Below are positions 2,393-60,467 of a stretch of DNA of 60,467 bases, piece after piece. Positions within the stretch are counted from its first letter, which is position 1. Every line of letters starts with the position of its first letter. Source of the DNA: Patescibacteria group bacterium (lineage in GTDB: Bacteria; Patescibacteriota; Minisyncoccia; 2-02-FULL-40-12; IGHO2-01-FULL-4-A); NCBI GenBank assembly GCA_038061865.1, contig JBBTYI010000009.1, positions 1-60,467 on the forward strand, read 5' to 3'. Under the pieces are notes generated by a model. It had not been told where the DNA came from. It did not search any database and worked only from the letters and a program-made list of their open reading frames with translations. A program made the translations under genes and the position numbers.

Positions 2393-2406
2393 TGTTCTCA
2401 AGAAAG

Positions 2407-3972: not shown

Positions 3973-3986
3973 GCCCCAACAGAATA

Positions 3987-5309: not shown

Positions 5310-5313
5310 GTGA

Positions 5314-6348: not shown

Positions 6349-7250
6349 AAATGGGCCGAACGGTTGTTAACTTTGATGCGCTTGATCATGCCGCCGTCGC
6401 GCTTTTGGCACTTTTGGCCGGTCAGTTGGTAGGCCTTGGTCATATTTTGGTAATTGCCGAATTTGCCTTCAAGCGTTCGGTAATCCTGCTGGCTATCGCC
6501 TTTGGCGACGATGGCCTTTTTTAATACGAATTTTATGTATTTGTAAACTTTCCTAATCTCCGATTCCTTCAGTGTTTCAGCGGTTCTCAGTGGTTGAATC
6601 CCGGCATACCACAAAATTTCATCCGAATAAATATTGCCGATGCCGGCAATGACAAATGGGTCTATCAGTACTTTTTTGACCACTCCCTTTCTTTTGGCCA
6701 TCATCGTTTTGAACTTGGCAAAAGTAAATTTTGGGTCTAGGGGCTCCGGCCCGAGCTTGCCGATTTCGTTGATATTTTCAATTTTTCCGGTATCCCCCAA
6801 AAAAACTTTGCCAAACCGGCGCAAGTCGGAAAGTCCCAGCATCCAGCCGTTGCTTAAAAACAGAATAAACCTTATGAACCGGTTATATGGGTCATCTCTC
6901 AACGGCCCTGGAATTGCAGCTATCCACTTCTGGTTTTTCTTATTCGCGGCATTCGCATACATTTGTAGATTTGCATTATATTTATTTTTTATCCATTTCC
7001 CGTAGAGCAAGTGCCCCGAGATTTTTTGATGAATTATCAGCGATTTGCCTCCCGAGAGGTCTATTATAATATATTTTGCCCGGCGGCGCGCCCGCAAAAT
7101 CTTCCGACCGGCAATGTCGGCAACAAAATTAGTTAGCGTATGAGTTCGGATCATTTTGGCCCAATCAGTCCAGGCATCCAAAATTTTCAGGCCTTTGACC
7201 TTGCGGTTCAGCTCGCGAACAATTGTTTCTACTTCCGGTAATTCCGGCAT
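6327..7250 (-). CDS. mutM: Formamidopyrimidine-DNA glycosylase (Fpg/MutM; Nei not excluded)
   Basis: N-terminal MPELPEVE with catalytic Pro2/Glu3, H2TH region, C-terminal zinc finger CxxC...CxxC. The listed ORF start was trimmed to the M that precedes PELPEVE. Confidence 0.85.
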   Translation of the reverse strand: MPELPEVETIVRELNRKVKGLKILDAWTDWAKMIRTHTLTNFVADIAGRKILRARRRAKYIIIDLSGGKSLIIHQKISGHLLYGKWIKNKYNANLQMYANAANKKNQKWIAAIPGPLRDDPYNRFIRFILFLSNGWMLGLSDLRRFGKVFLGDTGKIENINEIGKLGPEPLDPKFTFAKFKTMMAKRKGVVKKVLIDPFVIAGIGNIYSDEILWYAGIQPLRTAETLKESEIRKVYKYIKFVLKKAIVAKGDSQQDYRTLEGKFGNYQNMTKAYQLTGQKCQKRDGGMIKRIKVNNRSAHFCPVHQK

Positions 7251-7252
7251 AA

Positions 7253-9751
7253 TTAAACTTGTCTCATTTCCTGCCAATTATCCCCCGCTTTTACTTCCGC
7301 CACTATCGGTACTGCTAGCTGATGGACTGACTCCATAATTGATTTGATTTCTTTGGCTGCTTTTTCTACCAGGTCGGTTTTTACTTCACAAACAATTTCA
7401 TCATGCACTTGGAGTAGAAGCTTGGCGTCGGCGGAATTGAAATTTTCATGAAGATACTTGTCCGCGTTAATCATCGCCAATTTCATCAGGTCGGCGGCGG
7501 TGCCTTGGATAGGATGGTTGATGGCCGCCCGCTCGGCCCCGGCTTGGATTTGGGGCATAGTTGAGTAAATGTCCAACAGCGGGCGGCGCCGGCCGAACAG
7601 CGTTTGGACGTAGCCATCCCGGCGGACCTTGTCTTTTATCTCTTCCATATAGCGCGCCACGCCGGAGAACTCGGCAAAATAGCGGTCAATGAACTGGCGG
7701 GCGCGTTGGCGGTCCACGCCGGCGGCCCGGGCAAAACCAAGCGCGCCCATGCCGTAGATGATGCCGAAGTTTAGCGCCTTGGCCTGACGTCTCATTTTTT
7801 TAGTCACTTCTTGAGGTTCAACTTCAAAGATTTCCATCGCCGTACGGGTGTGGATGTCCTCGCCGCGCCGAAAAATTTCAATCATTTTTTCATCTTTGGC
7901 GATGTGGGCGACAATGCGCAGTTCCAATTGAGAGTAGTCAAAAGAAACCAATTGACAACCGTCCTCGGCGACAAAGGCCTTGCGGAATTCCTGCCCCAGT
8001 TCGGTTTTAATCGGGATATTCTGCAGGTTGGGGTTTTCCGAAGATAGCCGACCGGTGGCGGTGCCGGTTTGATTGTAAGTAGTATGTATCCGACCGTCTC
8101 TGGCGATAAGTTGTGGAAACGGCTCAATGTAAGTGGTTTTGAGTTTTTGCAGTTCGCGGTATTCCAAAATCAAATCAATGATCGGATGTTCGTCGCGCAG
8201 TTTTTCCAGTTCCGGCGCGGCGGTGGAAAGAGCGCCTTTGCCGGTTTTGCGCACCCGTCCACCAGCTGGCGGATTGATCGCCAGCTGGCGGTACAGCACC
8301 TCGCCCAATTGCTGGGGCGAATTAACATTGAACGGCGCTCCGGCCAGACGGTAGATTTCTTTTTCCAATTTCTCCAGCCGCGCGCTGATTGATTTGAGCA
8401 GTTTGGCCAACCCTTTGGCGTTAACTTTGATGCCGTTTAATTCCATCTCGGCCAGCACCGGGATCAGCGGCATTTCAATCTTCTCAAAAACCTCCAGTAA
8501 ATCGGCTGGCTGCATTTTGTCCCAGAGGCGATTTTTCAGCCGCCGGAGATAAGCGGATTTCTGGTCGGGGTCGTCTGCGTTTTCGCGAAACTCGCCGTAA
8601 TAAATCTTGTGAAAATCGTAGTCCGGCAAATCCGGGTGCAATAGCCAAGCGGCAATTTGTGTGTCAAACAACTTGGTTGGGATATCAGTACCGGATTGAA
8701 TGGCAGATTTAACGGTTTCTTTGAGACCATGGCCAGTAAGTATCTCTTGGTCAACGGCCATAACCGGATTTCCCTTGGCTTCACTTTTGACCGTAGGCAA
8801 CGCCATTTCGGTTTGTGGCGATAGATTAATTTCTACCAAGCGCTTCAACAAACTGAAAAACCCCAAATCCTTGAAGTTTTTCTCAATTTTCGGCAAATTC
8901 AGATTCTTCCGCCAATCGGCTTTGGCCAGCGAAAAATCAATGTCCAAATCGGTGACAATTTCCGAAAGTTGTTTTGAAAAAAAGGCCTGTTTTTTGTTAG
9001 CCAGCAATTTCTCTACCAGTTTTTCGGAAATTATCTTATCTTTCGTTCCCTTGTTTTGCGCCTTTCGCTTTGCACTTTTCGCTTCCAAAAATTTGTATAA
9101 TCCATCCAAGCTGCCAAATTTTTGGATTAGCTCCCCCGCCGTTTTCTCTCCGATTCCCGGCACGCCCGGAATATTGTCGGAGGGGTCGCCTTTCAGCCCC
9201 CGATAATCGCTCAATTGTTTGGGCTTTAATCCATAGCGTTCAAGGACCGCGTCCTCATCATAAATTATCGTATCGGTCATGCCCTTACGTAAAGTAAAAA
9301 CGACGACTTTTTTGCCGTCAACCAATTGCAGCGTATCTAAATCACCGGTGGCGATGATGGTTTGTAATCCGCCGGCGGGCGGATTTTTTTTAGCCCGCGT
9401 TGCCAGCGTACCGATCAAGTCATCGGCTTCATAGTTCGTTTTTTCATAAACCGGTATGCCAAACGCGGCCAAAATTTCTTTGACCAACGGAATTTGCCGA
9501 TAAAGCTCCTCGGGCGCTTTAACGCGATGGACTTTGTAGTCCTCAAACTGCTCATGGCGGAAAGTCGGGCCGGCTAAATCAAAAGCGGCGGCGATATAGT
9601 CGGGCTTGAGGTCCTTGATGGTCTTGAGCAGTATTGAGGTGAAACCATAAGCGGCGTTAGTCACCACTCCCTTAGCCGACGTCAAAGCCGGCAAGGCGTG
9701 AAAAGCCCGATGCACCAGAGCATTGCCGTCAATGAGGATAAGCTTGCGCAT
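7253..9751 (-). CDS. polA: DNA polymerase I (5'-3' exonuclease plus polymerase; Taq-like length)
   Basis: 832 aa; N-terminal FEN/5' nuclease domain (LILIDGNALVHRAFHAL); polymerase motif A DYSQLELR, motif B RRQAKALNFGIIYG, motif C VHDE. Confidence 0.95.
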   Translation of the reverse strand: MRKLILIDGNALVHRAFHALPALTSAKGVVTNAAYGFTSILLKTIKDLKPDYIAAAFDLAGPTFRHEQFEDYKVHRVKAPEELYRQIPLVKEILAAFGIPVYEKTNYEADDLIGTLATRAKKNPPAGGLQTIIATGDLDTLQLVDGKKVVVFTLRKGMTDTIIYDEDAVLERYGLKPKQLSDYRGLKGDPSDNIPGVPGIGEKTAGELIQKFGSLDGLYKFLEAKSAKRKAQNKGTKDKIISEKLVEKLLANKKQAFFSKQLSEIVTDLDIDFSLAKADWRKNLNLPKIEKNFKDLGFFSLLKRLVEINLSPQTEMALPTVKSEAKGNPVMAVDQEILTGHGLKETVKSAIQSGTDIPTKLFDTQIAAWLLHPDLPDYDFHKIYYGEFRENADDPDQKSAYLRRLKNRLWDKMQPADLLEVFEKIEMPLIPVLAEMELNGIKVNAKGLAKLLKSISARLEKLEKEIYRLAGAPFNVNSPQQLGEVLYRQLAINPPAGGRVRKTGKGALSTAAPELEKLRDEHPIIDLILEYRELQKLKTTYIEPFPQLIARDGRIHTTYNQTGTATGRLSSENPNLQNIPIKTELGQEFRKAFVAEDGCQLVSFDYSQLELRIVAHIAKDEKMIEIFRRGEDIHTRTAMEIFEVEPQEVTKKMRRQAKALNFGIIYGMGALGFARAAGVDRQRARQFIDRYFAEFSGVARYMEEIKDKVRRDGYVQTLFGRRRPLLDIYSTMPQIQAGAERAAINHPIQGTAADLMKLAMINADKYLHENFNSADAKLLLQVHDEIVCEVKTDLVEKAAKEIKSIMESVHQLAVPIVAEVKAGDNWQEMRQV

Positions 9752-9838
9752 AATTTCTAATATCTAATTACTAATTTCTAAATAATAACTAATGTCTAAT
9801 TGGGGCTTGGACATTGAAATTTGTTTAGAAATTAAAAA

Positions 9839-10318
9839 TTAGGAATTAGTAATTTTAATTGTTCTCTCATTTTGCGAAATATGGTCCATATGCACCCAAA
9901 TACATTTTTTCGGCAAAATCGGCTTCACTCTCTCCGCCCATTCAATTAGCACAATATTTCCCGGCTCGGCGATGATTTTCTTAATTCCCAGCGGCAGCAA
10001 ATCTTTGTAATTTTTCAGGCGATAGCAGTCAATGTGGACCAATTGGTTATAGGTTTTAGGTGATAGGTGATAGGCGCGCATCAATACAAATGTGGGGCTG
10101 GTCAATTTTTGCTTTACTCCCAATGCCTTGGCGAAGGCTTTGGCAAAAGTGGTCTTGCCGGCGCCCAACTCACCCTCTAGAGCTACCACCGTAGCCCTAC
10201 CCGGGGCGCTTGCCCACCGCAGTTTTGGCGAAGGCGGGAAGCGGAGGGTGATCAGCTTGCGCGCAAGTTCGGCAGCAATTTTTTGTGTTTGGGTAACGCT
10301 CTCTGACCGGTATTTCAT
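9839..10318 (-). CDS. tsaE: tRNA t6A biosynthesis ATPase TsaE (YjeE)
   Basis: 159 aa; P-loop GELGAGKTTFAKAF; size and layout typical of TsaE. Confidence 0.8.
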   Translation of the reverse strand: MKYRSESVTQTQKIAAELARKLITLRFPPSPKLRWASAPGRATVVALEGELGAGKTTFAKAFAKALGVKQKLTSPTFVLMRAYHLSPKTYNQLVHIDCYRLKNYKDLLPLGIKKIIAEPGNIVLIEWAERVKPILPKKCIWVHMDHISQNERTIKITNS

Positions 10319-10337
10319 ACGAGATTATAGCTTTTCC

Positions 10338-10368
10338 CGGGCAGTTTTTCAACAAAAAAGACCCGCCT
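10338..10368 (-). terminator. Intrinsic terminator (gacccgc...gcgggtc followed by tttttt on the minus strand) after the glycine-zipper gene
   Basis: 7-bp GC stem followed by a T-run on the minus strand. Confidence 0.55.
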
Positions 10369-10869
10369 TCAGAAGTGCGGGTCAAACCGTCTGCCTGCCC
10401 GAGAATAGTAATGATAGCGGCGATAGGACTGGTCGGTCTGGTTAAGGTAAGCGTCGTCATAGCGCCAGCCCCGTACGAAGCGGCGGGGTTGCCGCCGGTC
10501 ATTGCGACTTTGACTAGCTAACCAGCCAATACTACCGCCGACTATTGCTCCGATAGCCGCACCCTTGCCTTTGCCGGCTATTGCTCCAATCACTGTGCCC
10601 AGCGCCGCGCCGCCCAGTACGGCCCGGGCGCGCGGACCAAGATTCAGATCGTAATAGCCGCTGTAGTATTCCGGATAGAAACCGCCAAACTGACCGTAGC
10701 GGCTATTAATTACCCAATAGCCGTCGTAGCCACTGCCATAGTAAACCCACTGCGGACCCCAGACCCTGACCGGGACCGGCACGGGATACCAGTATTGGTA
10801 TTGAGCTTGCAGTTCGCTGGCGGCGGTCAGTCCAAGCAACAATGCTGACATCACAAAGAACTTTTTCAT
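10369..10869 (-). CDS. Secreted Tyr/Gly-rich glycine-zipper (YMGG-like) protein
   Basis: 166 aa; signal peptide MKKFFVMSALLLGLTAA; GxxxG zipper GGAALGTVIGAIAGKGKGAAIGAIVGG; AGGAGG Shine-Dalgarno upstream. Confidence 0.55.
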   Translation of the reverse strand: MKKFFVMSALLLGLTAASELQAQYQYWYPVPVPVRVWGPQWVYYGSGYDGYWVINSRYGQFGGFYPEYYSGYYDLNLGPRARAVLGGAALGTVIGAIAGKGKGAAIGAIVGGSIGWLASQSRNDRRQPRRFVRGWRYDDAYLNQTDQSYRRYHYYSRAGRRFDPHF

Positions 10870-10985
10870 TACCTGCCTCCTGAAAATACCTTAGCGCACA
10901 TCACTGCCTATTTCAACCCAAATCTCTATCTAGTTGTATATGACGTATGGGCGCGGCAAGTAGTGAAATAAGGCAAAATAAAAAG

Positions 10986-11006
10986 ACCACACGGGGAGTG
11001 TGGTCG
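10986..11006 (-). terminator. Intrinsic terminator (gaccacac-gggga-gtgtggtc followed by ttttt on the minus strand)
   Basis: 8-bp stem with a T-run, lying downstream of the 11051 gene on the minus strand. Confidence 0.55.
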
Positions 11007-11050
11007 GGGCCTAAGAGCCAGGCCCGAAAGAACTTATCCCCTGCTTGCCT

Positions 11051-11548
11051 CTATTGAGGGCGGCGGTAGCAGGGATCAACCGGCTCGCAAGGGCGGGCCG
11101 GGGGAGGTGGGGGCGGGATTTGGTGGATGACGATGTCCACCTTTGCCATAGCCGGTTCCGGCTTGGGGACCGGTTTCGGCTTCTCCTTCACCTGTCTGCG
11201 CAGGGCTTTGAGCTCCGCCTCGCGGACGGCCGCTTCCACTCGCGTGGAGCAGTCGTCGCAACCCAATGCCTTGCGATGGGCATCGGCTGCGGCGATGATT
11301 GCGGTGGCTCTTTCAAGCTCTGCGACAGCCGGAGCCAGAGTAGGAGGTGGTCCCTTGGCGGGAACGGCGGGAGTGCCACCGTTACGCCCGGTGGCGAGAA
11401 AAATTAGGGTGGCGAGGAGGAACAAAGCAAAGCCTCCTGCAATCAGCCACCAGACCCAGCTGGTCTGAGTGGTTGTGCGGCCGGCGGGAACCGGTCGGGC
11501 GGGTGTCACCGGCGCAAGGCCGGGCGGTACTACGGGTGGTGCTGCCAT
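11051..11548 (-). CDS. Proline-rich single-pass membrane protein (hypothetical)
   Basis: The start was reassigned to the internal ATG at 11548, which is preceded by AAGGAG at a 5-nt spacing. One TM helix (WVWWLIAGGFALFLLATLIFL), then a PPPPPP stretch and a KPKPVPKPEP tail. High-GC codon usage. Confidence 0.5.
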   Translation of the reverse strand: MAAPPVVPPGLAPVTPARPVPAGRTTTQTSWVWWLIAGGFALFLLATLIFLATGRNGGTPAVPAKGPPPTLAPAVAELERATAIIAAADAHRKALGCDDCSTRVEAAVREAELKALRRQVKEKPKPVPKPEPAMAKVDIVIHQIPPPPPPARPCEPVDPCYRRPQ

Positions 11549-11598
11549 TATTTCTCCTTCAGGTTTAGGCGACGGGCTTAGCCGCCGCCGGAAAAACG

Positions 11599-12282
11599 TT
11601 AATAAATTTGCCAACTGCCGGCAACGGAATGGACGTGGCGCTGTTCAAGTGGACTCCACTCCGTCCCCGTCCAAGCCCAGAACTCTGGTTGGCCGGTTAC
11701 TTCGGCTCGCTGACGCGGGTGGAGAATTTGGTCACCACTGTTCGTGCGAACCAGTACAATGGTTCGCTCAAAGCAGTTTTCAACAGCCATAGCCATTCCA
11801 GTCGGAGTCAGCCTAAGTGGTGGCGGCGGGGCAGTGGGTACCTGCTGGTGGAGCTCCTCTTTCTCGTGGCGTTCAAGCTGCCACTTTTGCTCCTCTTTAA
11901 GTCGCTCTTGCTCCTGTCGGTCGCAGGCAATCTGGGCGGCGAGCATGTCTTCTCGGAGCCCACGCAGATCACGGCGCTGGCGCCAGCCAGTTATCTCTTG
12001 CTTAACCACACTGGCACCCCCGACATAGCTGGCAACTTGCGCAATGGTGCGCCAGTCGCGGGTCGTCCCCCGCGCAATCAGGGCGCCCAACCCAGCGTCA
12101 CGGCCGGTTTCCCAAGCCCTATTCCACCCCGAACGGGTGGACGAGTACTCACCGCGGGCAGCAAAGTACTCTTGCTCCAGCAGCTCCGCCTGCCGGCAGA
12201 TCCCGGATTGGGCGGCGGCCGGGGGGGCCGCAAAAACCACAACCAGTGCGACCAACGCGGTCGCACAAATTATTCTTTTCAT
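11599..12282 (-). CDS. Secreted hypothetical protein (signal peptide plus coiled-coil)
   Basis: The start was reassigned to MKRIICATALVALVVVFAAPPAAAQ (a signal peptide), preceded by an AAGGAGAAGGAG ribosome-binding site. The 259-aa plus-strand ORF on the opposite strand was judged a GC-rich antisense artefact. Confidence 0.5.
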   Translation of the reverse strand: MKRIICATALVALVVVFAAPPAAAQSGICRQAELLEQEYFAARGEYSSTRSGWNRAWETGRDAGLGALIARGTTRDWRTIAQVASYVGGASVVKQEITGWRQRRDLRGLREDMLAAQIACDRQEQERLKEEQKWQLERHEKEELHQQVPTAPPPPLRLTPTGMAMAVENCFERTIVLVRTNSGDQILHPRQRAEVTGQPEFWAWTGTEWSPLEQRHVHSVAGSWQIY

Positions 12283-12346
12283 ACTCCTTCTCCTTTGCGG
12301 CGCGAGGCCGCGTTTTCGGGTTTTTGGTTTAGTATTTATAAAAAAA

Positions 12347-18439: not shown

Positions 18440-18515
18440 TATTCGCATGCGCTATGAATTATTCGCGCACACTATTCGTCAAGTGTATGCAACTACTATT
18501 CGTAAGCGTAGTAAC
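18440..18515. repeat. Copy of the ATTCGCATGCGCTATTCGTAAGCGTATGTAAC-family repeat, downstream of the DksA-like gene
   Basis: Sequence identity with the elements at 18904-19060 and, in reverse orientation, at 56399-56550. Confidence 0.6.
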
Positions 18516-18897: not shown

Positions 18898-18903
18898 CAG
18901 TGG

Positions 18904-19060
18904 ATTCGCATGCGCTATTCGTAAACGTATGTAACCATTTTAGAAGTTAAGGCTAGCACGAATATTAAAAATAATCAATGAATAATTCGCGTGCGCTACA
19001 AACGATTCGCATGCGCTATTCGTAAGCGTATGTAACCACTATTTGTAAGCGTAGGTAACT
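18904..19060. repeat. Two near-identical 34-bp direct repeats (18904-18937 and 19005-19038) plus degenerate units, upstream of the DksA-like gene
   Basis: attcgcatgcgctattcgta[a/g][a/c]gtatgtaacca occurs twice about 67 bp apart; partial copies at 18985-19004 and 19040-19059. Confidence 0.65.
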
Positions 19061-19126
19061 ATTTCTGGGTAATAAAAAGGACATCAAACAAGTAACCCAC
19101 AAGAAGATGTGTGGACAATTAGCGGA

Positions 19127-20402: not shown

Positions 20403-22532
20403 TTAGTTGTTGCGCGAGCGCATTGTCAGATTTATTCTACCATACTCATCAATATTTTTTACCCACACGTGGACAACTTGACCAAGCTTCAAAATATCGG
20501 CCGGCCGGCGGATGTGTTCGCCGGCGATTTCCGAGACGTGCACCATTCCTTCCTGGCCGGGTTTAAATTCAACAAATGCTCCAAAATCCATTAGTCGCGT
20601 TACTTGCCCCTTAAACTCATCACCGGGTTTGGCTTCGTAGGTCAGCTCTTCAATCCACTTGATTGCTTTTCCCATCCCTTCGGGGTCGATAGAAGTTATA
20701 AACACCGAGCCGTCATCTTCAATATCAATCTGCACTCCGGTTTTGTCTATAATTTCATTTATCACTTTGCCCTGCGGACCGATAACGGTTCTGATTTTTT
20801 CCGGATTAATTTTAATGATTTTCACCCGGGGCGCGTAAACGGATAATTCCGGGCGGGGCGTGCTGATGGCTTTGCTCATTTGCTCAAGGATTTCTAAGCG
20901 GGCTTGTTTAGTCTGGGCCAGTACTTTCTCCAGCACTTCAATACCAATGCCTTCCACCTTGACATCCATCTGCATTGCCGTGATACCGTCTCTGGTGCCG
21001 GCAACTTTCATATCCATATCGCCGTGATGATCCTCCGGCCCTTGGATGTCAGTTAAGATTTTGTACTTTGGGGCTTGGCCTTCCGAAGCCTTTGGCGAAG
21101 GAGGTTCAAACATCAGGCCCATAGCGATACCGGCGGCCGGCGCTTTGATCGGCACCCCGCCGTCCATCATTGCCAATGACGCGCCGCAAACCGAAGCCAT
21201 TGAGGATGAACCGTTAGAAGACAAAATTTCGGACACCACCCGAATGGTATAGGGAAATTCTTCTTTGCTGGGAATTAACGGTTCCAGCGCCCGCTCGGCC
21301 AAGGCGCCGTGGCCGATTTCCCGCCGGCCGGTAAAACCGATCCGCCCCACTTCGCCCACGCTGAAAGGCGGAAAAACATAGTGGTGCATAAAACGTTTTT
21401 TGGTCAGATTAATTTCCATCGTCTCAATCCACTGTTCCATCCCCGGCGCGGCCAGTGTCAGCGAAGACAAGGCCTGGGTAGTACCACGTTGGAATAGCCC
21501 AGTGCCATGAGAGTGCGGAAGCACGGCAATCTCGGCGCTAATCGCCCGCAGTTCGTCAATTTTTCTACCGTCGGGACGTTTCTCCCCTTCCAGAATATTT
21601 TTGTGAACGATACGGTCAATTTCTTCCTCAAAAATCAGGTTGGCTTCTTTGATTTTTTTGTCCAGTTCCGGGTGGCCGGTAAATTGAGTGGAGAGATATT
21701 CACCCAACTCCGCCTGGGTTTTTTTCAAACCCTCCACATAGGCCTGTTTGTGCGGCGTGTAAAGCACCTTTTCCAATTTAGGCGCGACAAAATCGCTGAC
21801 CATTTTTTTCAAGGCCTCATCGTGGGCAAAAATATTCAAAGTTTTCTTGGCTGTGCCGATTTCTTCGGCGATTTTTTCCTGCAATTTGTTTAACTTTTGC
21901 AGTTCCTTGAAACCGTATTCAACCGCTTCAGCAATGTCTTTCTCCGGCACAATTTTGGCGCCGGCTTCAATCATATTGATTTTGTTGGCGGTGCCGGCCA
22001 CCACGATGTCAAAGTCGCTTTTTGGACGTTCTTCATAAGTCGGATTGGCAATCAATTTGCCGTCAACACGGCCAACCCGGACGGCGGAAATCGGGCCGTC
22101 AAAAGGGATGTCGGAAATCATCAGCGCCAGCGAGGCGCCGAACAACGCCGGAATGTCTGGGTCGTTGATTGAGTCAAAAGTCAGCACCGTAGGCACGATT
22201 TGGACTTCGTTTCGAATGTTGTGGTCAAACCGCGGGCGGATTGAGCGGTCAATCAGGCGGCCGGTCAAAATTGCTTCGTCCGAGGGCCGGGTTTCGCGCT
22301 TGATCCATCTTGAACCTTTGATCTTGCCGGCGGCGTAATACTTTTCCTCATAATCCACCGAGAGGGGAAAGTAGTCGGCGTCTTTCTCGCGTTCTGACAT
22401 GGTGGCCGTCACCAGCACGGTTGACTCCCCATACTGCACGCGGCAGGAACCATTGGCTTGCCCGGCCAGACGGCCGATTTCAACCAAAAGCGGCCTGCCG
22501 GCAAAATCCTCTTTATATGTTTTCACTTTCAT
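20403..22532 (-). CDS. pnp: Polynucleotide phosphorylase
   Basis: 709 aa; two RNase PH domains, KH and S1 C-terminal domains (GQVVHVWVKNIDEYGRINL). Confidence 0.95.
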   Translation of the reverse strand: MKVKTYKEDFAGRPLLVEIGRLAGQANGSCRVQYGESTVLVTATMSEREKDADYFPLSVDYEEKYYAAGKIKGSRWIKRETRPSDEAILTGRLIDRSIRPRFDHNIRNEVQIVPTVLTFDSINDPDIPALFGASLALMISDIPFDGPISAVRVGRVDGKLIANPTYEERPKSDFDIVVAGTANKINMIEAGAKIVPEKDIAEAVEYGFKELQKLNKLQEKIAEEIGTAKKTLNIFAHDEALKKMVSDFVAPKLEKVLYTPHKQAYVEGLKKTQAELGEYLSTQFTGHPELDKKIKEANLIFEEEIDRIVHKNILEGEKRPDGRKIDELRAISAEIAVLPHSHGTGLFQRGTTQALSSLTLAAPGMEQWIETMEINLTKKRFMHHYVFPPFSVGEVGRIGFTGRREIGHGALAERALEPLIPSKEEFPYTIRVVSEILSSNGSSSMASVCGASLAMMDGGVPIKAPAAGIAMGLMFEPPSPKASEGQAPKYKILTDIQGPEDHHGDMDMKVAGTRDGITAMQMDVKVEGIGIEVLEKVLAQTKQARLEILEQMSKAISTPRPELSVYAPRVKIIKINPEKIRTVIGPQGKVINEIIDKTGVQIDIEDDGSVFITSIDPEGMGKAIKWIEELTYEAKPGDEFKGQVTRLMDFGAFVEFKPGQEGMVHVSEIAGEHIRRPADILKLGQVVHVWVKNIDEYGRINLTMRSRNN

Positions 22533-27688: not shown

Positions 27689-27732
27689 CCCCTATCAAAA
27701 ACCCCCGCCTAGGCGGGGGTTTTTGATAGGGG
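27689..27732. terminator. 21-bp perfect hairpin (cccctatcaaaaacccccgcc-ta-ggcgggggtttttgatagggg) at the tmRNA 3' end
   Basis: Perfect reverse complement over 21 bp with a 2-nt loop; abuts the tmRNA acceptor end. Confidence 0.6.
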
Positions 27733-28080
27733 TGGACTTGGGGGAAATCGAATCCCCGTCTGGAGGTTCATTTACACAAGCGCTACAAGTTTAGCCCGTC
27801 TTGTTTTAAGTAACCGCGTAAAAGACGGGCGAAATAGCGATTACTTGCTTTGAGGGTTGCGACCGGCGATCGGCAAAGCAACCAGATGCCGGAAGTTCCC
27901 GCTGATGACGTTGGTGACTGACTAGCGGGGTCGTCAGGCCAACGGCTACCTAAATGATGTTAGGCGGCAAACGCGAAATTTTGGTTTGCGTTTAGATTTT
28001 TGATTGTTGATTAAAGCGGTGACAATCATCCGCTACTTGCGCTGGTTATAAACGTACCGCCATCAAAGCCGGTCAAGCCC
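27731..28080 (-). ncRNA. ssrA: tmRNA (SsrA), about 350 nt, tag peptide (A)ANQNFAFAA
   Basis: Minus-strand read: 5' GGGCUUGACCGGCUUUGAUGGCGG resembles the consensus 5' GGGGCUGAUUCUGGAUUCGACGGG. The 3' end has a T-arm GGGGA-UUCGAUU-UCCCC and an acceptor strand CAAGUCC pairing with the 5' GGGCUUG. In frame is GCA AAC CAA AAU UUC GCG UUU GCC GCC UAA. An upstream TTGGAC-17-CATAGT promoter is present, and smpB is 1.8 kb away. Confidence 0.85.
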
Positions 28081-29887: not shown

Positions 29888-30331
29888 TTACTTTATTCTT
29901 CGCAACGCCCGTTCTGTCTCCCGCCGTTTGACCACTTCCCGTTTGTCGTATTTTTTCTTGCCGCGGGCGACGGCAATTTCTAACTTAATCAGCCCCCTTT
30001 TGTCGTAAAGTTTGAGCGGCGCAAGAGTGAGACCTTGCTCTTGGGATTTGCCAATCAGATATTTAAGCTCGGATTTTTTGAGCAGAAGCTTGCGGGAGCG
30101 CTGGGGGTCATAGGGAGGTCCGCCAGCTGGCGGATTGCCCGGCTGGTAAGGGGAGACAGTTGCACCGACCAACCACGCTTCGCCACCCAGTATTTTCACA
30201 TACGCTCCTTTGATAGACACTTTACCGGTTTTGACTGACCTTACTTCCTGTCCGGTCAAAACTAAACCAGCTCGGAATGTTTCCAATACTTCATAATCAA
30301 ACCGGACTTTGGGATTGTCGGCGTAGGTCAT
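29888..30331 (-). CDS. smpB: SsrA-binding protein SmpB
   Basis: The start was trimmed to MTYADNP (147 aa). VLETFRAGLVLTGQEV...GKVSIKGAYV; C-terminal basic tail. Confidence 0.9.
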   Translation of the reverse strand: MTYADNPKVRFDYEVLETFRAGLVLTGQEVRSVKTGKVSIKGAYVKILGGEAWLVGATVSPYQPGNPPAGGPPYDPQRSRKLLLKKSELKYLIGKSQEQGLTLAPLKLYDKRGLIKLEIAVARGKKKYDKREVVKRRETERALRRIK

Positions 30332-49816: not shown

Positions 49817-52144
49817 ATGCCCAAATACGACCACAAAAAAACGGAAAAATACTGGCAAGCCAAATGGCTCAAGGAGAAAATCTACGAGCCGGACTTAAAG
49901 AGTCCGCGCGGGAAGGGTAAGTTCTATAACCTGATGATGTTCCCGTATCCCTCGGCCGAGGGTCTGCATGTCGGCAATGTGTACGCTTTCGTCGGCAGCG
50001 ATATTTACGGACGTTATCAACGGATGCGGGGCTACGATGTGTTTGAGCCGATCGGTTTGGATGGCTTTGGCATCCATTCCGAGAACTACGCTTTGAAAAT
50101 CGGCAAGCATCCGGCTGACCAAGCCAAAATCTCGGAAAAAAAATTCTATAAACAATTGAGGGCCATCGGCAACGGTTTCGCTTGGGATGAGAAACTGGAA
50201 ACCTACGACCCGGAATACTATCGCTGGACGCAATGGATTTTTATCCAAATGTTTAAACACGGGCTGGCTTACCGCAAAAAGCAGGCCGTCAACTGGTGCC
50301 CTTCCTGTCTGACCGTGCTGGCTGACGAACAAGTAATCGCCGGCGAGTGCGAGCGCTGTGAGAGCAAGGTGATTAAAAGGGAGCTGGAGCAGTGGTTTTT
50401 CAAAATCACCGATTATGCCGAGCGGCTGTTGAACAATCTGGATAAAATTGACTGGTCGGAAAAGATTAAGATTGCCCAAAGAAATTGGATTGGCAAAAAC
50501 ACCGGCGCCCTGATAGGTTTTAAGTTACAAGCTACAAGTTACAAAATTGACGTCTTCACTACCCGTCCTGATACGCTGTTTGGTGCCACTTATATGGTTC
50601 TGGCTCCCGAACATGAGTTAATCCGCCAGCTTAAACCGCAAATCCAAAATTGGTCGGGGGTGGAGACATATATCAATACCGCCAAGGCCAAAACCACCGA
50701 ACAGCGGATCGCTGAAGGCAAAGAAAAAACCGGGGTAGAACTGAAAGGCGTGATGGCCGTTAATCCCGCCAATCAAAAGGAGATTCCGGTTTGGGTAGCC
50801 GACTACGTACTCACCGGCCACGGTACCGGCGCGATTATGGCCGTACCGGCGCATGATGAACGGGATGCGGAGTTTGCCAAAAAATTCGGCTTGCCGGTTA
50901 GTGACGCACCATTAGTGGATAATGAAGAAATCATCAAAAAAGTCGGCGGCCAGAAAATCACCAACTACCGCTTGCGCGATTGGCTAATCTCCCGTCAGCG
51001 CTATTGGGGGCCGCCGATTCCGATGATTTACTGCGATCCGCCAGCTGGCGGATGTAATTGGCAGCCGGTGCCGGAGGAGGATCTGCCGGTGGTGTTACCA
51101 AAGGTTAAAGACTTCCGTCCGACTGGCACCGATAAATCACCGCTGGCTTCGGTGGAAAAGTTTTACCAAACCAAATGTCCCAAGTGCGGCGGCCCCGCCC
51201 GGCGCGAAACCGATGTGTCGGACACCTTCCTTGATTCAGCTTGGTATTATTTGCGCTATCCGTCAGTCAAAGACAAAAAAACCCCTTTTGGTCCCGCGAT
51301 AACCAAAACTTGGCTGCCAGTTGACGTGTACATTGGGGGAGCCGAACATGCTGTTCTACACCTGCTTTATGTTCGTTTTGTGGCTATGGCACTGCACGAT
51401 TGGGGGCTGGTGGATTTTTCCGCCAAAGGCGGAGAACCGGCCACGCGTTTCCGAGCGCATGGACTGTTAATCAGCGGCGGCGCCAAAATGTCCAAGTCGC
51501 GCGGCAACGTCGTCAACCCGGATGAATACATCAAAAAATACGGGGCTGACGTTTTGCGGATGTATCTGATGTTTCTGGGGCCGTTTGACCAAGGCGGGGA
51601 TTTCAGAGATGAGGGCGTGGCTGGGATTGTACGGTTTATCAATCGCGTTTGGTCGCTAAAAGAAAAAATAGCCAGTCAAGATAGCCTAGAACTTAACCGA
51701 CCCCTCCATAAATCAATTAAAAAAGTCAGCGAGGATATTGCCGAGCTTCACTACAACACGGCCATCAGCCAGCTGATGATTTTGTCGCGGGAAATGGAAA
51801 ATGGTTTTTCCGCAGAACAATTGGAAATTTTCCTGAAATTGCTGGCTCCCTTTGCTCCGCATATTACTGAAGAAATTTGGCACAGTATTCTGAAAAACAA
51901 GGAGTCAATCCATATTGCCCCCTGGCCGGAATATAACCCCAAACTCATCGCCGACGAGATGATTGACTTCATCATCCAGATTAACGGCAAGGCCCGAGGG
52001 GTGGTTACGTTGGCTCAAAATAGCACCGAACCAGAGGTCAGCGCGGCGGCCCAAACCAACGCCAACATCAAAAAACATCTCGCCGACAAGACAATCATTA
52101 AGACTGTTTTTGTCCCAAACCGGCTCATCAATTTCGTCATCTGA
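49817..52144 (+). CDS. leuS: Leucyl-tRNA synthetase
   Basis: 775 aa; HVGN (HIGH), KMSKSRGN, CP1 editing region. Confidence 0.95.
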   Translation: MPKYDHKKTEKYWQAKWLKEKIYEPDLKSPRGKGKFYNLMMFPYPSAEGLHVGNVYAFVGSDIYGRYQRMRGYDVFEPIGLDGFGIHSENYALKIGKHPADQAKISEKKFYKQLRAIGNGFAWDEKLETYDPEYYRWTQWIFIQMFKHGLAYRKKQAVNWCPSCLTVLADEQVIAGECERCESKVIKRELEQWFFKITDYAERLLNNLDKIDWSEKIKIAQRNWIGKNTGALIGFKLQATSYKIDVFTTRPDTLFGATYMVLAPEHELIRQLKPQIQNWSGVETYINTAKAKTTEQRIAEGKEKTGVELKGVMAVNPANQKEIPVWVADYVLTGHGTGAIMAVPAHDERDAEFAKKFGLPVSDAPLVDNEEIIKKVGGQKITNYRLRDWLISRQRYWGPPIPMIYCDPPAGGCNWQPVPEEDLPVVLPKVKDFRPTGTDKSPLASVEKFYQTKCPKCGGPARRETDVSDTFLDSAWYYLRYPSVKDKKTPFGPAITKTWLPVDVYIGGAEHAVLHLLYVRFVAMALHDWGLVDFSAKGGEPATRFRAHGLLISGGAKMSKSRGNVVNPDEYIKKYGADVLRMYLMFLGPFDQGGDFRDEGVAGIVRFINRVWSLKEKIASQDSLELNRPLHKSIKKVSEDIAELHYNTAISQLMILSREMENGFSAEQLEIFLKLLAPFAPHITEEIWHSILKNKESIHIAPWPEYNPKLIADEMIDFIIQINGKARGVVTLAQNSTEPEVSAAAQTNANIKKHLADKTIIKTVFVPNRLINFVI

Positions 52145-52575: not shown

Positions 52576-55011
52576 ATGCCACAACTGATTCTCTACGTTG
52601 TTCTTCTGACAGTACTCGGTCTGATACTGTTGGCCGGTTGGGTTGCCCTGAACGGCTTGCAGAGCAAAGGCCGAGTGCAAAAAGCGCTTAATCTGACTTT
52701 GCTTTTGATTAAGGTGCCGCGCGAGGCGATGAGCGGTCAGGCGGGCGGCGGCGGTCAGCCGAAGAATGAAAAGGAGCTCATCGGCATTGCCGAGCAGTTG
52801 ATTTCCAGTTTCACCAACCTTCACTCCAAGGGTCTGGATAAATTTCTTTACGGCGAGCCCTACTTGGTTTTGGAAATGGCCGTGCACCATATCGGCGAGG
52901 AGACCCATTTTTATCTGGCCGTGCCCCGGAACAGCGAGGGAATTATTGAAAAACAAATTTATGGATTTTATCCCAGCGCCGAAATCGGCCGGGTTTCTGA
53001 CTACAATATTTTCAATCCCGCCGGCTCGGCCGCCGGTAGCTATCTGACCTACACTCAAAACCCGATCTTGCCTTTCAAAACCTATCAAAAGCTGGAAGCC
53101 GACCCGATTGGCGGCATTTTGACGGCTCTATCCAAGCTGGAAACTGAAGGCGAGGGCGCGGCTATGCAAATTTTAATTCGCCCGGCTCACGCCAACAGCC
53201 AGAAATCATTGGCCGCCAAAGTAGCCAGAGAAATGCAGTCGGGCTACCAATTCAAAGAGGCTCTGCGGCGAGCCAAACATCCGCCCAAACCCAAAAAACC
53301 AGAACCCGGCCAGCCGCCGGAACCGGAAAAACCGCGGCTAATCACTCCGGCCGACGACGAGGTAATCAAAGCGATTGCCGCCAAAGCCGGCAAGCAGAAT
53401 TTTGACGTCAATATCCGGCTTTTAACTTCGGCAATTTCCTCCGAGCGCGCCGGGCAGATTCTGCAGGATCTGGAGGGTTCTTTGACCCAGTTTTCTTCGC
53501 CCGACCTCAACGGTTTTAAGACGGCTAAACTTTCCGGCTCGGCCTTGGAAAAACTGGCTTACAATTTCGCCTTCCGGCTGTTTGACGAAAGACAAAAAAT
53601 GGTGATGTCCACCGAGGAAATTGCCAGTTTTTATCACTTTCCGTTAGCGACGACAGCCACGCCCAAAGTCAAATTTTTGAAAGCCAAACAATCCGAGCCG
53701 CCCGCCAATCTGCCGGCTGAAGGCGTGGTGCTGGGCGCCAGTGTTTTCCGCGGGCAAGAAGTGCCCATCAGAATGGCCGACGGTGACCGCCGCCGGCATC
53801 TTTATGTCATCGGCCAGACCGGCACCGGCAAATCCTCGTTGATGAAGCAGATGATTAGGCAAGACATCGCTAACGGCAAGGGCGTCTGCTTGGTTGACCC
53901 GCACGGCGAATTCGCCGATTACGTGCTGTCGGTGGTACCGCCCGGCCGCGCCGAAGAGGTGATTCATTTCAACCCGGGCGACATTGACCGGCCGCTGGGA
54001 CTGAATATGCTGGAAATTGACCCGGCGCGGCCGGAACAGAAAACTTTTGTCGCCAACGAAATGCTGGCTATCGTCAAAGCGCTTTACCAAGACCTGCCCG
54101 AGGCCTTTGGCCCGATGTTTGAGCAATATTTCAAAAATGCCATTTTACTTTTGCTTGACGACTACGCCACTGAAATCCCGACTTTGGCCGAATTGCCCAA
54201 AGTACTGGCCAACGCCGACTACCGGCGCGATAAGTTAAGCCGCGAGCTAAATCCGCTGGTGAAAAACTTCTGGGAGCTGGAAGCTGAGAAAGCCGGCGGG
54301 GAAGCGGCGCTGGTCAATATGGTGCCCTACATTACCTCCAAACTGAATCCCTTTCTGGCTAACGATTACGTCCGGCCGATCATCGGCCAGCAAAAGAGCG
54401 CCTTCAATTTCCGGGAAGTGATTGACGGCGGAAAAATCCTCATCGTTAATCTTTCCAAAGGCCGCATTGGCGACATTAACGCTAATCTGCTTGGGATGAT
54501 TATTGTCAGCAAACTGCTGATGGCTTCCTTATCACGGGTGGATATCGCTGATGAAAACCAGCGCCGGGATTTTTATTTTTACATTGACGAGTTCCAAAAT
54601 TTCACTACCGAAAGCATCGCCACTATCCTTTCCGAAGCCCGCAAGTACCGGCTGGATTTGATTGTCGCCCATCAGTATATCAAGCAACTGCAGGAAAATA
54701 TCCGCGACGCCGTTTTCGGCAATGTCGGTTCCATGGCCGTGTTCCGCGTCGGCGCCGATGACGCCGAATATTTGAAAAACCAGTTTGAGCCGGTTTTCAG
54801 CGTCCAGGATTTGATGAGCATAGATAATTTTCACTGTTACCTCAAGTTGCTGATTAATAACCAAACCACCCGGCCCTTCAGCATCCAGACCAGCCGCGAA
54901 CCGGACGGCTCGGCGGAAGTAAGAGAACAAATCCGGGAATTATCGCGACTGAAATACGGCCGCCCCCGGGAGGAAGTTGAGACAGAGATAGCTGGCCGAT
55001 ATCAGGTTTAG
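52576..55011 (+). CDS. Membrane-anchored FtsK/HerA/TraD-superfamily P-loop ATPase (T4SS coupling-protein-like / DUF87-like)
   Basis: 811 aa; N-terminal TM; Walker A GQTGTGKSS; DPHGEF (HerA/TraD-type); Walker B YFYIDEFQNF. Confidence 0.55.
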   Translation: MPQLILYVVLLTVLGLILLAGWVALNGLQSKGRVQKALNLTLLLIKVPREAMSGQAGGGGQPKNEKELIGIAEQLISSFTNLHSKGLDKFLYGEPYLVLEMAVHHIGEETHFYLAVPRNSEGIIEKQIYGFYPSAEIGRVSDYNIFNPAGSAAGSYLTYTQNPILPFKTYQKLEADPIGGILTALSKLETEGEGAAMQILIRPAHANSQKSLAAKVAREMQSGYQFKEALRRAKHPPKPKKPEPGQPPEPEKPRLITPADDEVIKAIAAKAGKQNFDVNIRLLTSAISSERAGQILQDLEGSLTQFSSPDLNGFKTAKLSGSALEKLAYNFAFRLFDERQKMVMSTEEIASFYHFPLATTATPKVKFLKAKQSEPPANLPAEGVVLGASVFRGQEVPIRMADGDRRRHLYVIGQTGTGKSSLMKQMIRQDIANGKGVCLVDPHGEFADYVLSVVPPGRAEEVIHFNPGDIDRPLGLNMLEIDPARPEQKTFVANEMLAIVKALYQDLPEAFGPMFEQYFKNAILLLLDDYATEIPTLAELPKVLANADYRRDKLSRELNPLVKNFWELEAEKAGGEAALVNMVPYITSKLNPFLANDYVRPIIGQQKSAFNFREVIDGGKILIVNLSKGRIGDINANLLGMIIVSKLLMASLSRVDIADENQRRDFYFYIDEFQNFTTESIATILSEARKYRLDLIVAHQYIKQLQENIRDAVFGNVGSMAVFRVGADDAEYLKNQFEPVFSVQDLMSIDNFHCYLKLLINNQTTRPFSIQTSREPDGSAEVREQIRELSRLKYGRPREEVETEIAGRYQV

Positions 55012-55029: not shown

Positions 55030-55153
55030 AATACCCCGCCCCCTTTCACTGCCCGAACTCGGATGAGGCGCGGTTTTAATGGTTTTATAAAAATAGTACC
55101 GCTTATTGCTTCAGCCTCAATCCTTATTAGGCAGTGAAAGGGGGCGGGGTATT
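55030..55153. repeat. 124-bp element with perfect 24-bp terminal inverted repeats (AATACCCCGCCCCCTTTCACTGCC)
   Basis: 55030-55053 is the exact reverse complement of 55130-55153; the 76-nt interior is AT-rich. Confidence 0.65.
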
Positions 55154-56398: not shown

Positions 56399-56550
56399 TT
56401 ATTCGTTGTTACATACGCTTACAAATAGCGCACACGAATATACATAAGCGTACGTAACTGGGTATTGCCAAAATCAGGTTTCTTAAGCATAATCCAAAAA
56501 GCGTTGGGTTGTTTTGTTGTTGCATACACTTAACGAATAGTGCATACGAA
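56399..56550. repeat. Reverse-orientation copies of the 18440/18904 repeat family, upstream of tsaC
   Basis: gttacatacgcttacaaatagcgca is the reverse complement of tgcgctatttgtaagcgtatgtaac. The second unit at 56518-56550 is the reverse complement of ctattcgtcaagtgtatgcaac at 18467-18488. Confidence 0.6.
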
Positions 56551-56558
56551 TTACTTAG

Positions 56559-59170: not shown

Positions 59171-59273
59171 AAAAACCGCGCCGAGCGGCAAGGGTTTTCC
59201 CCCACAAAATCAATGGGCGGCACTTTGTGCCGCCCACGATCTGGCTCTCAAAAAGCCGTCTAGTTTTGTCTTG

Positions 59274-59384
59274 GTGCAGTATTCTTGAATTAGTCCGAAC
59301 GCATTTCGCCGCCGCAGGCGGCGAGGAAGTCCCCCCGCGAAAATTCGGAAAGGCGGCGGAGCCGCACCGCTGACAATTTCAAGT
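59274..59384. repeat. GC-rich hairpin element; an inverted copy is present at positions 1-92 (truncated by the window edge)
   Basis: 59301-59365 matches the reverse complement of 1-65 except in one hairpin, where cgccg-tctg-cggcg is replaced by cgccgcc-gca-ggcggcg (compensatory change). The element ends cttgaatt...aatttcaag pair with each other. Confidence 0.6.
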
Positions 59385-59487
59385 TTTTCTTTGGCGGCAT
59401 TCAATCCAAGGATTCGGGGAGCGAACTACTGAAATTTTAGCAAATTTCAGCTTCGGCGACAAATTCTTTGTTCTTTCAAATTTAGAA

Positions 59488-59525
59488 AAAGAAAAGGGCG
59501 CGACTCTATGAAGAGAAGCGCCCGG
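59488..59525 (-). terminator. Intrinsic terminator (gggcgc...gcgccc followed by ttttcttttt on the minus strand) after the GtrA operon
   Basis: 6-bp GC stem with a T-run on the minus strand. Confidence 0.5.
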
Positions 59526-60000
59526 TTACCCCTTGTTGTTGAGTGGGGCAACGAACTCAAGTTCGCCACGAATCACGCCACCGATCTTAAGAACGCAAAT
59601 CGAGAAGACCCGAAGTGTGCCAACTTCTTTCAAAGTTAGCGACAACTCGAAGTCCGTTCCTTTCAGAATGTTCTTGAGATAGCGAAGGTCGCTCCGGCGA
59701 AACCACATCTTGCACTCGACCATGAGCCGCTTGAATGTCTCGTAGTCCGCGAAGTCGAAGTCGGCAACCTTGTCTTGAATCAGGAAGCCGACCAGAACAT
59801 ACGAGAGCTGTGAGAGACAACGGACGTATTGCTCCGCCGTCACGTACTCAATCGGCTGACGAGTGTACGAGTGGGAACGCGGTACGGCAAACCGTCCGGT
59901 TGCCGACTTCTGTTCTACCGAGTACGCCACCACCTCGCGGAGGTAGACGGCTTCCGGCACATACAGAAGTTCGAGTAGCTCACGGGCTCTGTCGCTCATG
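59526..60000 (-). CDS. Hypothetical protein (possibly hotdog-fold), translationally coupled to gtrA
   Basis: The start was reassigned to MSDRAR, with ATGA overlapping the GtrA stop; 158 aa; elevated GC. Confidence 0.45.
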
Positions 60001-60403
60001 TTAACCTCCTTTCGTTTTTGAAGATTCTGCCGGAGATGATGAAACTCAAGACAGAGATGACTATCGTGAGAATCACTTGCGCTCCGATGTACCAAAGGTG
60101 CAGATACTCCACCATAAGGTACAGCAAGAGTGTGTTGCCGATGAGAAAGGAAACGGTCATGGCGACATACAGCGCGAGCTGACGGCCAACCATGTGAGTT
60201 TCCTTGTTCTGGAATGTCCAGAATTTCTGAAGTGTGAAGTTCAGTCCGGTATTCAGGACGAAACCAATCACCGCAGAAATGACATACCAGACACCCAGGT
60301 ACTCGGTGAGGCCGTACAGAGCGGCATAGTAAGCAATAACGCCGGCGGCTCCTGCAACGCAGAACCGCACGACTTGCCTGAGGCGAGACGTTTCGGTTCG
60401 CAT
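59996..60403 (-). CDS. GtrA-family membrane protein (polysaccharide-synthesis associated)
   Basis: 135 aa; 4 TM; RFCVAGAAG...LNFTLQKFWTF matches the GtrA signature. Confidence 0.65.
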   Translation of the reverse strand: MRTETSRLRQVVRFCVAGAAGVIAYYAALYGLTEYLGVWYVISAVIGFVLNTGLNFTLQKFWTFQNKETHMVGRQLALYVAMTVSFLIGNTLLLYLMVEYLHLWYIGAQVILTIVISVLSFIISGRIFKNERRLT

Positions 60404-60467
60404 TGAGGATACCTCCTTTCAGTTTTTGGTTTGTGAATGTACTACTTCGTTGAACCGAAGTTCAATG

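Follow-up and report, generated by a model that had tools for sequence, protein, structure and literature searches.

A conserved hairpin-bearing repeat as the probable end of small, serine recombinase-associated gene cassettes in CPR/Patescibacteria

Inverted repeats and cargo genes at the two ends of the window

The window, a 60,467-nt stretch of contig JBBTYI010000009.1 from a Patescibacteria group bacterium, starts within one copy of a GC-rich repeat upstream of recG and contains a second, inverted copy between folD and an operon with a GtrA gene. A repeat search of the window identified positions 1-89 and 59278-59366 as inverted arms of 89 nt with 90% complementarity, and a pairwise alignment of the left and right copies contained an identical block of 53 nt. 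A 26-nt sub-pattern of the repeat occurs exactly twice in the window, compared with 0.00 occurrences expected from 100 shuffles. The first-pass annotation had described a 65-nt pair (1-65 and 59301-59365); the inverted repeat is real, but 65 nt is too short, as the left copy reaches to about position 95.

The left core copy (1-95, + strand from the inner to the outer side; nhmmer match at 1-90) belongs to class 1 of the two core classes described below and has an attR-type outer end, which is degenerate and reads ..AAGTATTCTACGCAA in place of ..AAGTATTCTGCACCA. Its inner side is clipped by the start of the window and of the contig and is continued in L001, a sister contig from the same groundwater project that matches window 1-12334 at 99.8% identity and reaches 978 nt beyond it on the left. 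L001 944-1067 matches window 59402-59278 at 89%, the likeness to the right copy extending about 35 nt more. The body of the left-hand cassette, with a 215-aa ORF, lies to the left of the window, and the left end of L001 carries this cargo ORF together with a class-2-type inner segment at the contig start. Window 1-30 differs from L001 979-1008 at three positions (tttccgaatttt versus ttttctgatttt); at all three, the window agrees with the right-hand copy, possibly through bleeding of the consensus from one repeat copy into another at the contig end.

The right core copy (59272-59372, − strand; 101 nt, CAGCGGTGCGG...AATACTGCACCA) is also of class 1 and forms the attR-type end of a cassette containing the GtrA gene. 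Its outermost hexamer, GCACCA (59272-59277, − strand; TGGTGC on the + strand), is an identity block common to the cassette end and tRNA 3' ends. The class-1 inner segment on its other side, GCCGCCAAAGAAAAACTTGAAATTGTC (59372-59398, − strand), is a remnant of recombinase codons ~35 to 43 (AAKEKLEIV), as identified by comparison with the recombinase gene of contig L014 at 4340-4366. The self-complementary sequences cttgaatt (59285-59292) and aatttcaag (59376-59384), previously taken as the ends of the element, are present; they do not mark its boundary, because aatttcaag lies outside the shared core, is derived from recombinase codons, and is absent from the other copy class.

Inward of the right core, a sigma-70-like promoter (TTGTCG-17-TGcTAAAAT; 59434-59462, − strand) points outward through the core toward folD, and a terminator hairpin with a T-run (59496-59523, − strand), read from the sequence and laid out as in other cassettes, ends the cargo operon. 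The operon consists of a 157-aa ORF (59526-59999, − strand) without a Pfam or NCBIfam match and a 135-aa ORF of the GtrA/DPMS transmembrane family (59996-60403, − strand; PF04138, E = 7.8e-19), and it is preceded by a ribosome-binding site and part of the cargo promoter region (60404-60467, − strand), where the element runs past the window. Contig L003 contains, ~140 to 200 nt past the window, the promoter, a 5'UTR shared among cassettes, and the inner end of a recombinase-type terminal repeat (IR). Because of this sequence upstream of GtrA, the right-hand element is assigned to a type lacking the large serine recombinase (LSR) gene and extends ~150 to 250 nt beyond the window. The GtrA block had been singled out earlier as compositionally distinct, and it is indeed foreign, being cassette cargo.

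The sequence downstream of folD differs among independent assemblies, being the cassette in some and a tRNA gene in others, joined at exactly the same GCACCA (59272-59277). Contigs encoding an identical FolD protein are 99.98 to 100% identical to the window up to 59277 and diverge between 59277 and 59278. Beyond this point, L082 has the core, like the window, L083 has a tRNA 3' half in reverse complement (..GGTTCGAGTCCCTCACGGCGCACCA; 3' end ...GGCGCACCA), and the L081 scaffold has another tRNA and reaches the cassette only later. This is an occupied/empty polymorphism, with further rearrangement, located exactly at the tRNA 3' end downstream of folD, and the right-hand junction shows both presence/absence and neighbor swapping. 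In addition, the GtrA cassette, 99.2% identical, adjoins tRNA-Pro in a different context (L002). No empty site was found for the left copy. The window itself contains no LSR gene, IR, or tRNA gene, and its linkage to them runs through family membership and the sister contigs. The latter all break within the repeats, and a tRNA/IR junction upstream of GtrA and a class-2 core or LSR gene left of the 215-aa ORF were absent from all contigs examined.

Core family, cassette units, and the large serine recombinase

An exact pattern with 24 specified core bases was found in 77 stretches of GTDB species-representative genomes, almost all of them MAGs of Patescibacteria/CPR, often with several per genome and often at contig ends. 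The lineages include Saccharibacteria, Jorgensen-, Kaiser-, Yanofsky-, Doudna-, Gottesman-, Kerfeld-, and Falkowbacteria, WWE3, and others. The same pattern was present in more than 118 metagenome contigs, and, with regard to a viral origin, it had no match in IMG/VR. A profile search with nhmmer identified 284 core copies in 199 of the loci examined; rather than being unique to the window pair, which had been raised as a possible objection, the repeat is a multicopy family. The conserved core of ~100 nt reads (C/G)AGCGGTGCGGCTCCGCCGCCTTTCCGAATTTTCGCGGGGGGACTTCCTCGCCGCC-GCA-GGCGGCGAAATGCGTTCGGACTAATTCAAGAATACTGCAC(CA), and its outer end is conserved up to ..CTGCAC, followed by CA in 58 to 75% of copies. 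Its conservation exceeds that of the cargo and of the LSR, and its identity, near 95 to 100% across phylum-level lineages, points to recent horizontal spread and not to a genome-specific repeat family. A full-text search of the literature found no description of this element, and the core and cassette family appears to be undescribed so far.

The two core classes are told apart by the sequence on their inner side. Class 1, which includes both window copies, carries GCCGCCAAAGAAAAACTTGAAATTGTC on the inner side and follows an ORF with its terminator. In class 2, ..GGTTCGAGCCGATGTTTTT..GGTTCTTTTGCGGTTTTGA stands ahead of the core, and the reverse complement of such a copy runs into the shared 5'UTR (TTTTGGGGGAAGAAAATTTTTTAATC) and the start codon of the ORF. 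All but one of the 72 inverted core pairs (71/72) combine one class-1 with one class-2 core; they enclose units of 803 to 2,094 nt (median, 1,126 nt), each with one or two co-oriented ORFs. The cargo is diverse, with 45 ORFs falling into 40 unrelated clusters. Recognizable products include GtrA, SAM- and TylF-type methyltransferases, bPH_2 membrane proteins, PGDYG, dihydroorotate dehydrogenase (DHODH), an MBOAT fragment, and a PepSY-like protein. Both inner segments derive from the LSR gene: that of class 1 corresponds to the codons named above, and that of class 2 corresponds to codons ~50 to 56 fused to codons ~447 to 455, a deletion junction shared with a defective LSR unit in L095. The latter unit (L095 4600-5010; ~420 nt) is a miniature, MITE-like derivative of the LSR unit, in which IR, 5'UTR, codons 1 to 53, an internal deletion, and the last ~40 codons with the IR follow in this order, fused to a tRNA 3' end.

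Assignment of the repeat to the REP/MITE level holds in a loose sense, as it is a genuine multicopy, hairpin-bearing, mobile family, but it is neither a true REP nor a true MITE. All copies that could be resolved terminate coding cassettes tied to a serine recombinase system, and the cores bound ORF-containing units of 0.8 to 2.1 kb with no target-site duplication.

A long LSR match was present in 42 loci. The enzyme, of 510 to 520 aa, contains the Pfam domains Resolvase, Recombinase, and Zn_ribbon_recom and adjoins the cassette unit where resolved; L014, for example, a whole contig of 6.8 kb, has a unit directly beside a 520-aa gene with all three domains. The LSR proteins are 70 to 95% identical across lineages. 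They match the A118 integrase, SPbeta YokA/SprA, XisF, and CcrA/B weakly but significantly, the NCBIfam matches to XisF, Ccr, and related families all being far below the curated cutoffs. The LSR gene is flanked by inverted repeats of ~100 nt (the IR), one of which is the gene's own 3' coding end, while the other is an inverted copy upstream of the LSR 5'UTR. Of 71 evaluable class-2 cores, 61 have this IR next to their outer end. Beyond the outer end of class-1 cores lies unrelated host-like sequence in 151 of 160 cases and the IR in only 9. In L014 (~5700-5760), L171, and L087, the recombinase repeat is preceded by neither a tRNA nor a core but by a third recurrent sequence, TTTTGAAAATAGGTTCGAGCTTGGTACAATAAA(T/C)ACACCA, possibly a further type of arm.

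At its outer end, GCACCA-NNNN-GGAAA.., the IR is joined in 39 cases to the 3' end (...GCACCA) of a tRNA called by ARAGORN, covering 21 anticodon species, and in 59 cases to a core end (...CTGCACCA or ..AATACTGCACCA). Since the IR is joined to tRNA ends and core ends alike, the core occupies the position of a tRNA 3' end. At the 39 tRNA genes, insertion falls exactly at the final base. Two element forms were observed. The composite form has the order tRNA / IR-LSR-IR' / core2-cargo-core1 / flank (e.g., L009, L014, L030, L042, L069, L071, and L072), and the LSR-less form, with one core and one IR end instead of two cores, has the order tRNA / IR-5'UTR-cargo-core1 / flank (e.g., L010, L013, L045, L048, L058, L065, and L068). 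L068 is a clean example of the latter, with tRNA-Leu(caa) / IR-cargo-core / GACA-tRNA-Arg(ccg) and just GACA between the CACCA of the core and the next tRNA; class-1 outer flanks often run into the next tRNA gene of a cluster in this way. GCACCA is present at both the tRNA/IR and the core/flank junctions, and a core..GCACCA/IR junction was found inside composite elements. One exception, L045, has GTACCA at both junctions, which misfits a simple 2-nt crossover at a fixed GC. Inspection by eye of the core end and the IR start revealed no clear or convincing dyad symmetry around GCACCA. In L063, the recombinase unit is replaced by a 44-nt perfect palindrome (4256-4300; CAGAATATCAATACGCCACCC/GGGTGGCGTATTGATATTCTG) that separates a class-2 core end from the 3' end of a tRNA-Leu.

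Taken together, it is very likely that the core terminates small mobile, LSR-associated gene cassettes across the CPR/Patescibacteria and that both window copies are ends of two independent insertions. We infer that the LSR would integrate a circularized element at tRNA 3' ends by a crossover within the shared GCACCA. The core...GCACCA/IR junction would then serve as attP, with the tRNA end being regenerated by the CACCA that the element brings. A full composite would read from the tRNA ...GCACCA through the IR, the LSR gene, the inverted IR, the inverted class-2 core, the shared 5'UTR, one or two cargo genes, a terminator, and an outward promoter to the class-1 core, ending in ...CTGCACCA at the former downstream flank of the tRNA. 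Under this scheme, the window copies would be attR-type junctions of insertions in opposite orientations: on the left, a cassette with the 215-aa ORF upstream of recG, and on the right, an LSR-less cassette of ~1.45 kb (GtrA and the 157-aa ORF) at a tRNA 3' end downstream of folD. Assemblers break at such repeats, and the contig therefore begins and nearly ends in them. The sigma-70-like promoter directed outward through the core, present in the window, in L001 (903-931), and, as read by eye, in L068, probably drives whatever follows the core, which would be a host gene when the element is integrated and the IR-5'UTR with the recombinase or cargo in the circle.

Two features go beyond this scheme. 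First, the core of ~100 nt is longer, and its inner part more conserved, than an LSR half-site needs, which suggests that the inner 70 nt have a further function. Second, composites contain core and IR in two inverted copies each, more than one attP × attB event alone would account for. A broader and more tentative reading, which we consider possible but rather doubtful, is that the cores, the recombinase repeat, and the LSR form a pan-CPR cassette exchange platform, a serine-recombinase analogue of the integron, with the inner 70 nt of the core as a mimic of the tRNA end. Such a platform would capture single genes between hyperconserved palindromic arms, stack them, and pass them among phylum-level lineages by way of the CCA end common to all tRNA genes, and the inner 70 nt, with their ACCA tail and their own promoter upstream, might serve as an RNA or DNA scaffold for the recombinase.

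Two successive cassettes in L042 are joined by a long near-perfect palindrome (3286-3430) in which the outer arms are missing and a class-1 inner segment, core 2-67, the reverse core, and a class-2 inner segment follow each other in frame with the recombinase-derived codons. A crossover at the center of the GC sub-hairpin, as this palindrome might suggest, was considered as a possibility, but the polymorphic junctions map to GCACCA, and a center deletion within a long core-core palindrome explains the L042 sequence equally well.

Folding of the core and alternative explanations

The two window copies contain a GC-rich sub-hairpin with the same 7-bp stem. In the left copy it reads cgccgcc-gca-gacggcg (44-60; stem 44-50/54-60, with one stem mismatch at 55), and in the right copy it reads cgccgcc-gca-ggcggcg (59307-59323; stem 59307-59313/59317-59323), the loop of the latter being flipped relative to the arms in comparison with the left copy and L002. 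Both copies thus read cgccgcc-gca-g.cggcg on the + strand of the window although the elements are inverted. When compared in register, they differ by a reverse-complemented loop (gca/tgc) and one stem substitution (G to A at 55). The difference had been interpreted as a compensatory stem change and a sign of structural selection; it is instead a loop flip plus one substitution, and no double-sided compensatory change was detected by RNAalifold among 74 unique cores on either strand. Across the core family, the loop is GCA in 61 copies, TGC in 14, TGT in 4, and ACA in 3. Its orientation nearly always agrees between the two cores of one unit, which are therefore true inverted repeats. The sub-hairpin is wholly missing in some copies (L047, L059, L066, L078, and L081), and additional hairpins are present at three other loop-like positions in L009/L067, L015, L056/L075, and L071. 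With the lack of covariation, the loop flips, and the losses, the flip is best regarded as a recurrent property of a perfect small palindrome and gives no evidence of a selected helix; the GC sub-hairpin is such a palindrome, with a flipping or lost loop, and not a selected RNA helix.

The predicted fold of the core is a Y shape dominated by the GC sub-hairpin. A search of the repeat copies and L001 against Rfam gave no match at the gathering score. The sequence GAGGAAGUCC after the GC hairpin resembles P3/P4 of RNase P, and the best permissive match was to RNaseP_arch (14.4 bits versus a gathering score of 84), truncated to the 5' end of the model at window 1-80 (− strand). RNase P was ruled out, as nothing follows in the right copy, no RNase P is found to the left of the window in L001, and the sequence is a mobile repeat. 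A tRNA-like fold was likewise rejected; the core forms no cloverleaf, and ARAGORN and Rfam were negative, although a 5-bp acceptor-like pairing can be drawn between the 5' end of the core (GCGGT/GCAGT) and the ACTGC ahead of the ACCA tail.

Among the alternatives to the cassette-end reading, the one that survives best, although we judge it unlikely, is that the core is a structured noncoding RNA gene or a cis-regulatory RNA, transcribed from the adjoining promoter, with hairpins under RNA-structure selection. The promoter-like site pointing into the core in the window, L001, and L068, the terminators after the core, the conservation of the core above that of the cargo and LSR, the extra hairpins at the three loop-like positions, and the acceptor-like pairing would all suit a transcript. 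However, the folding z-scores are only −1.5 to −2.0, the Rfam matches amount to noise, compensatory changes are lacking on both strands, and the sub-hairpin is flipped or deleted in many copies. Moreover, the two copies of one unit lie on opposite strands, and the core is always positioned at a cassette boundary against the IR or host flank. Selection at the RNA level, as first proposed, is not borne out by these data, and a core transcript could arise as a by-product or leader.

It is highly improbable that the cores are the terminal inverted repeats of a nonautonomous DDE-type transposon whose transposase is located elsewhere and whose link to the LSR is incidental. The pairs of ~100-nt inverted repeats around 0.8- to 2.1-kb units, the TG...CA-like outer ends (GTGCAG...CTGCAC), and the breakage of contigs at cores, as at IS ends, resemble such an element, but no transposase ORF was noticed among the ORFs inspected in L014 and L042 or the cargo ORFs scanned. 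Target-site duplications are absent, the sole repeat at the two ends of a composite being the GCACCA shared with tRNA ends. A polarity toward the LSR that is fixed in 61 of 71 cases, the single core and single IR end of LSR-less units, and the insertions at the last base of 39 tRNA genes also speak against it.

We give equally little credence to the cores being sites of a Hin/Gin/shufflon-type inversion switch, at which the adjacent serine recombinase flips the cargo to switch its expression. Such a switch would fit inverted sites that flank a short segment beside a serine recombinase gene, share their loop orientation as true inverted repeats, and have promoters at both inner ends. Yet the orientation is essentially fixed, with the class-2 end facing the recombinase in those 61 cases, and the 9 class-1 ends followed by the IR are equally explicable as tandem units. 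The enzyme is an LSR of 510 to 520 aa with a zinc ribbon and not an invertase of ~190 aa; LSR-less single-core units occur at tRNA ends, and the window's units have no recombinase beside them.

An assembly artifact (a chimeric or fold-back join, or bleed-through of reads into the contig end) is largely refuted and hardly credible: the window does start within the repeat, its first 30 nt do match the right copy at the three positions that differ from L001, and the L081 scaffold has Ns beside the junction, but the copies differ at 10% of positions, which together with the recurrence of the junctions in independent ENA and Logan assemblies also disposes of a circular overlap, contigs obtained from different samples with different assemblers reproduce the recG junction (L001) and the right junction (L082 and L081/L002/L003), and the same architecture is found in 199 loci from unrelated projects.

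Comparison with known systems and other features of the window

If the cores are indeed the ends of LSR-associated cassettes, the system would work like LSR integrative elements and transposons and would functionally resemble tycheposons and integron cassettes. The elements of phages A118, SPbeta, phiC31, and Bxb1, TnpX/TndX of Tn4451/Tn5397, Ccr of SCCmec, and XisF share the same Resolvase/Recombinase/zinc-ribbon architecture; in them, as here, the ends share a short identity block with the target, and occupied and empty alleles differ precisely there. Unlike those elements, the autonomous unit described here is little more than a recombinase gene between 100-nt inverted repeats, and instead of a single locus it targets the GCACCA at the end of many different tRNA genes, of 21 anticodon species. 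In addition, one att arm is a hyperconserved, hairpin-rich module of ~100 nt, and recombinase-less single-gene cassettes with the same arms are common.

Like integron cassettes with attC sites, the units carry single genes of unrelated function, promoter-poor or self-contained, each ending in an imperfectly palindromic recombination module, and co-oriented cassettes lie beside a divergently transcribed recombinase gene, two of them joined in a row by a palindrome in L042. In contrast to integrons and their tyrosine recombinase IntI, the enzyme is of the serine type, no resemblance to the R and L boxes of attC is evident in the core sequence, the arrays contain at most two cassettes, and insertion takes place at tRNA ends and not at attI. 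The short GC-rich hairpin repeats of REP/BIME, MITEs, and Rickettsia palindromic elements are likewise multicopy, intergenic, and associated with assembly breaks, whereas the resolved copies described here bound coding cassettes and lack target-site duplications.

In Prochlorococcus, tycheposons are tRNA-integrating cargo elements that remodel the flexible regions of streamlined genomes; according to the available part of that report, they mostly encode tyrosine recombinases, with a minority using an LSR, integrate at 7 specific tRNAs, and usually contain replication modules and cargo of up to at least 10 kb (bioRxiv 10.1101/2020.12.28.424599). The same part of the report mentions no conserved 100-nt hairpin arm, and the host is a cyanobacterium and not a member of the CPR (bioRxiv 10.1101/2020.12.28.424599). 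The CPR units use an LSR and contain no replication genes, and the resemblance is functional only.

A nearly identical element is found across Saccharibacteria and Microgenomates-type and Parcubacteria-type groups. It apparently needs only one recombinase, targets a sequence offered by every tRNA gene, and carries a different gene in almost every copy. The element would provide a concrete route for horizontal gene flow in the CPR radiation and would explain the recurrent contig breaks and neighbor swapping at tRNA loci in CPR metagenome assemblies. In the window, both the GtrA block and what lies to the left of recG would accordingly be insertions and not part of the core genome. To our knowledge, no genetic tools are established for the CPR/Patescibacteria, with their tiny genomes, and the LSR with its att sites is a candidate integrase and att pair for such tools.

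Several other features were observed in the window. The sole RNA gene called is a tmRNA gene (27730-28080, − strand; Rfam, 116.6 bits) with the tag peptide ANQNFAFAA, and no tRNA gene was called in the 60 kb. A small palindromic repeat, (G)TCCGCCAGCTGGCGGATT(G), is located at 8257-8276, 9362-9385, 22224-22243, 30118-30137, and 51036-51055, and it is also inserted inside the core copy of L071 (3419-3525; ..CTTTCCGTCCGCCAGCTGGCGGATTCGCGG..). A motif of ~35 nt, ATTCGCATGCGCTATTCGTAAGCGTATGTAACCAC, occurs at least five times, in two oppositely oriented clusters separated by 37 kb, one on the + strand (18461-18496, 18903-18937, and 19004-19061) and one on the − strand (56405-56439 and 56516-56551). 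G+C content has a local peak at 11001-12000 (0.617 versus ~0.49 window-wide). An 811-aa gene at ~52576-55011 (+ strand; equivalent to L081 189-2624), with matches to DUF87, TrwB_AAD_bind, DUF8128, and, faintly, TraG-D_C, encodes a coupling-protein/VirD4-like ATPase and is followed by an ECF-type sigma factor, which suggests that another mobile or secretion-related module lies a few kilobases from the right-hand cassette. A perfect 24-nt inverted repeat (AATACCCCGCCCCCTTTCACTGCC) is present at 55030-55053 and 55130-55153, with a spacer of 76 nt.
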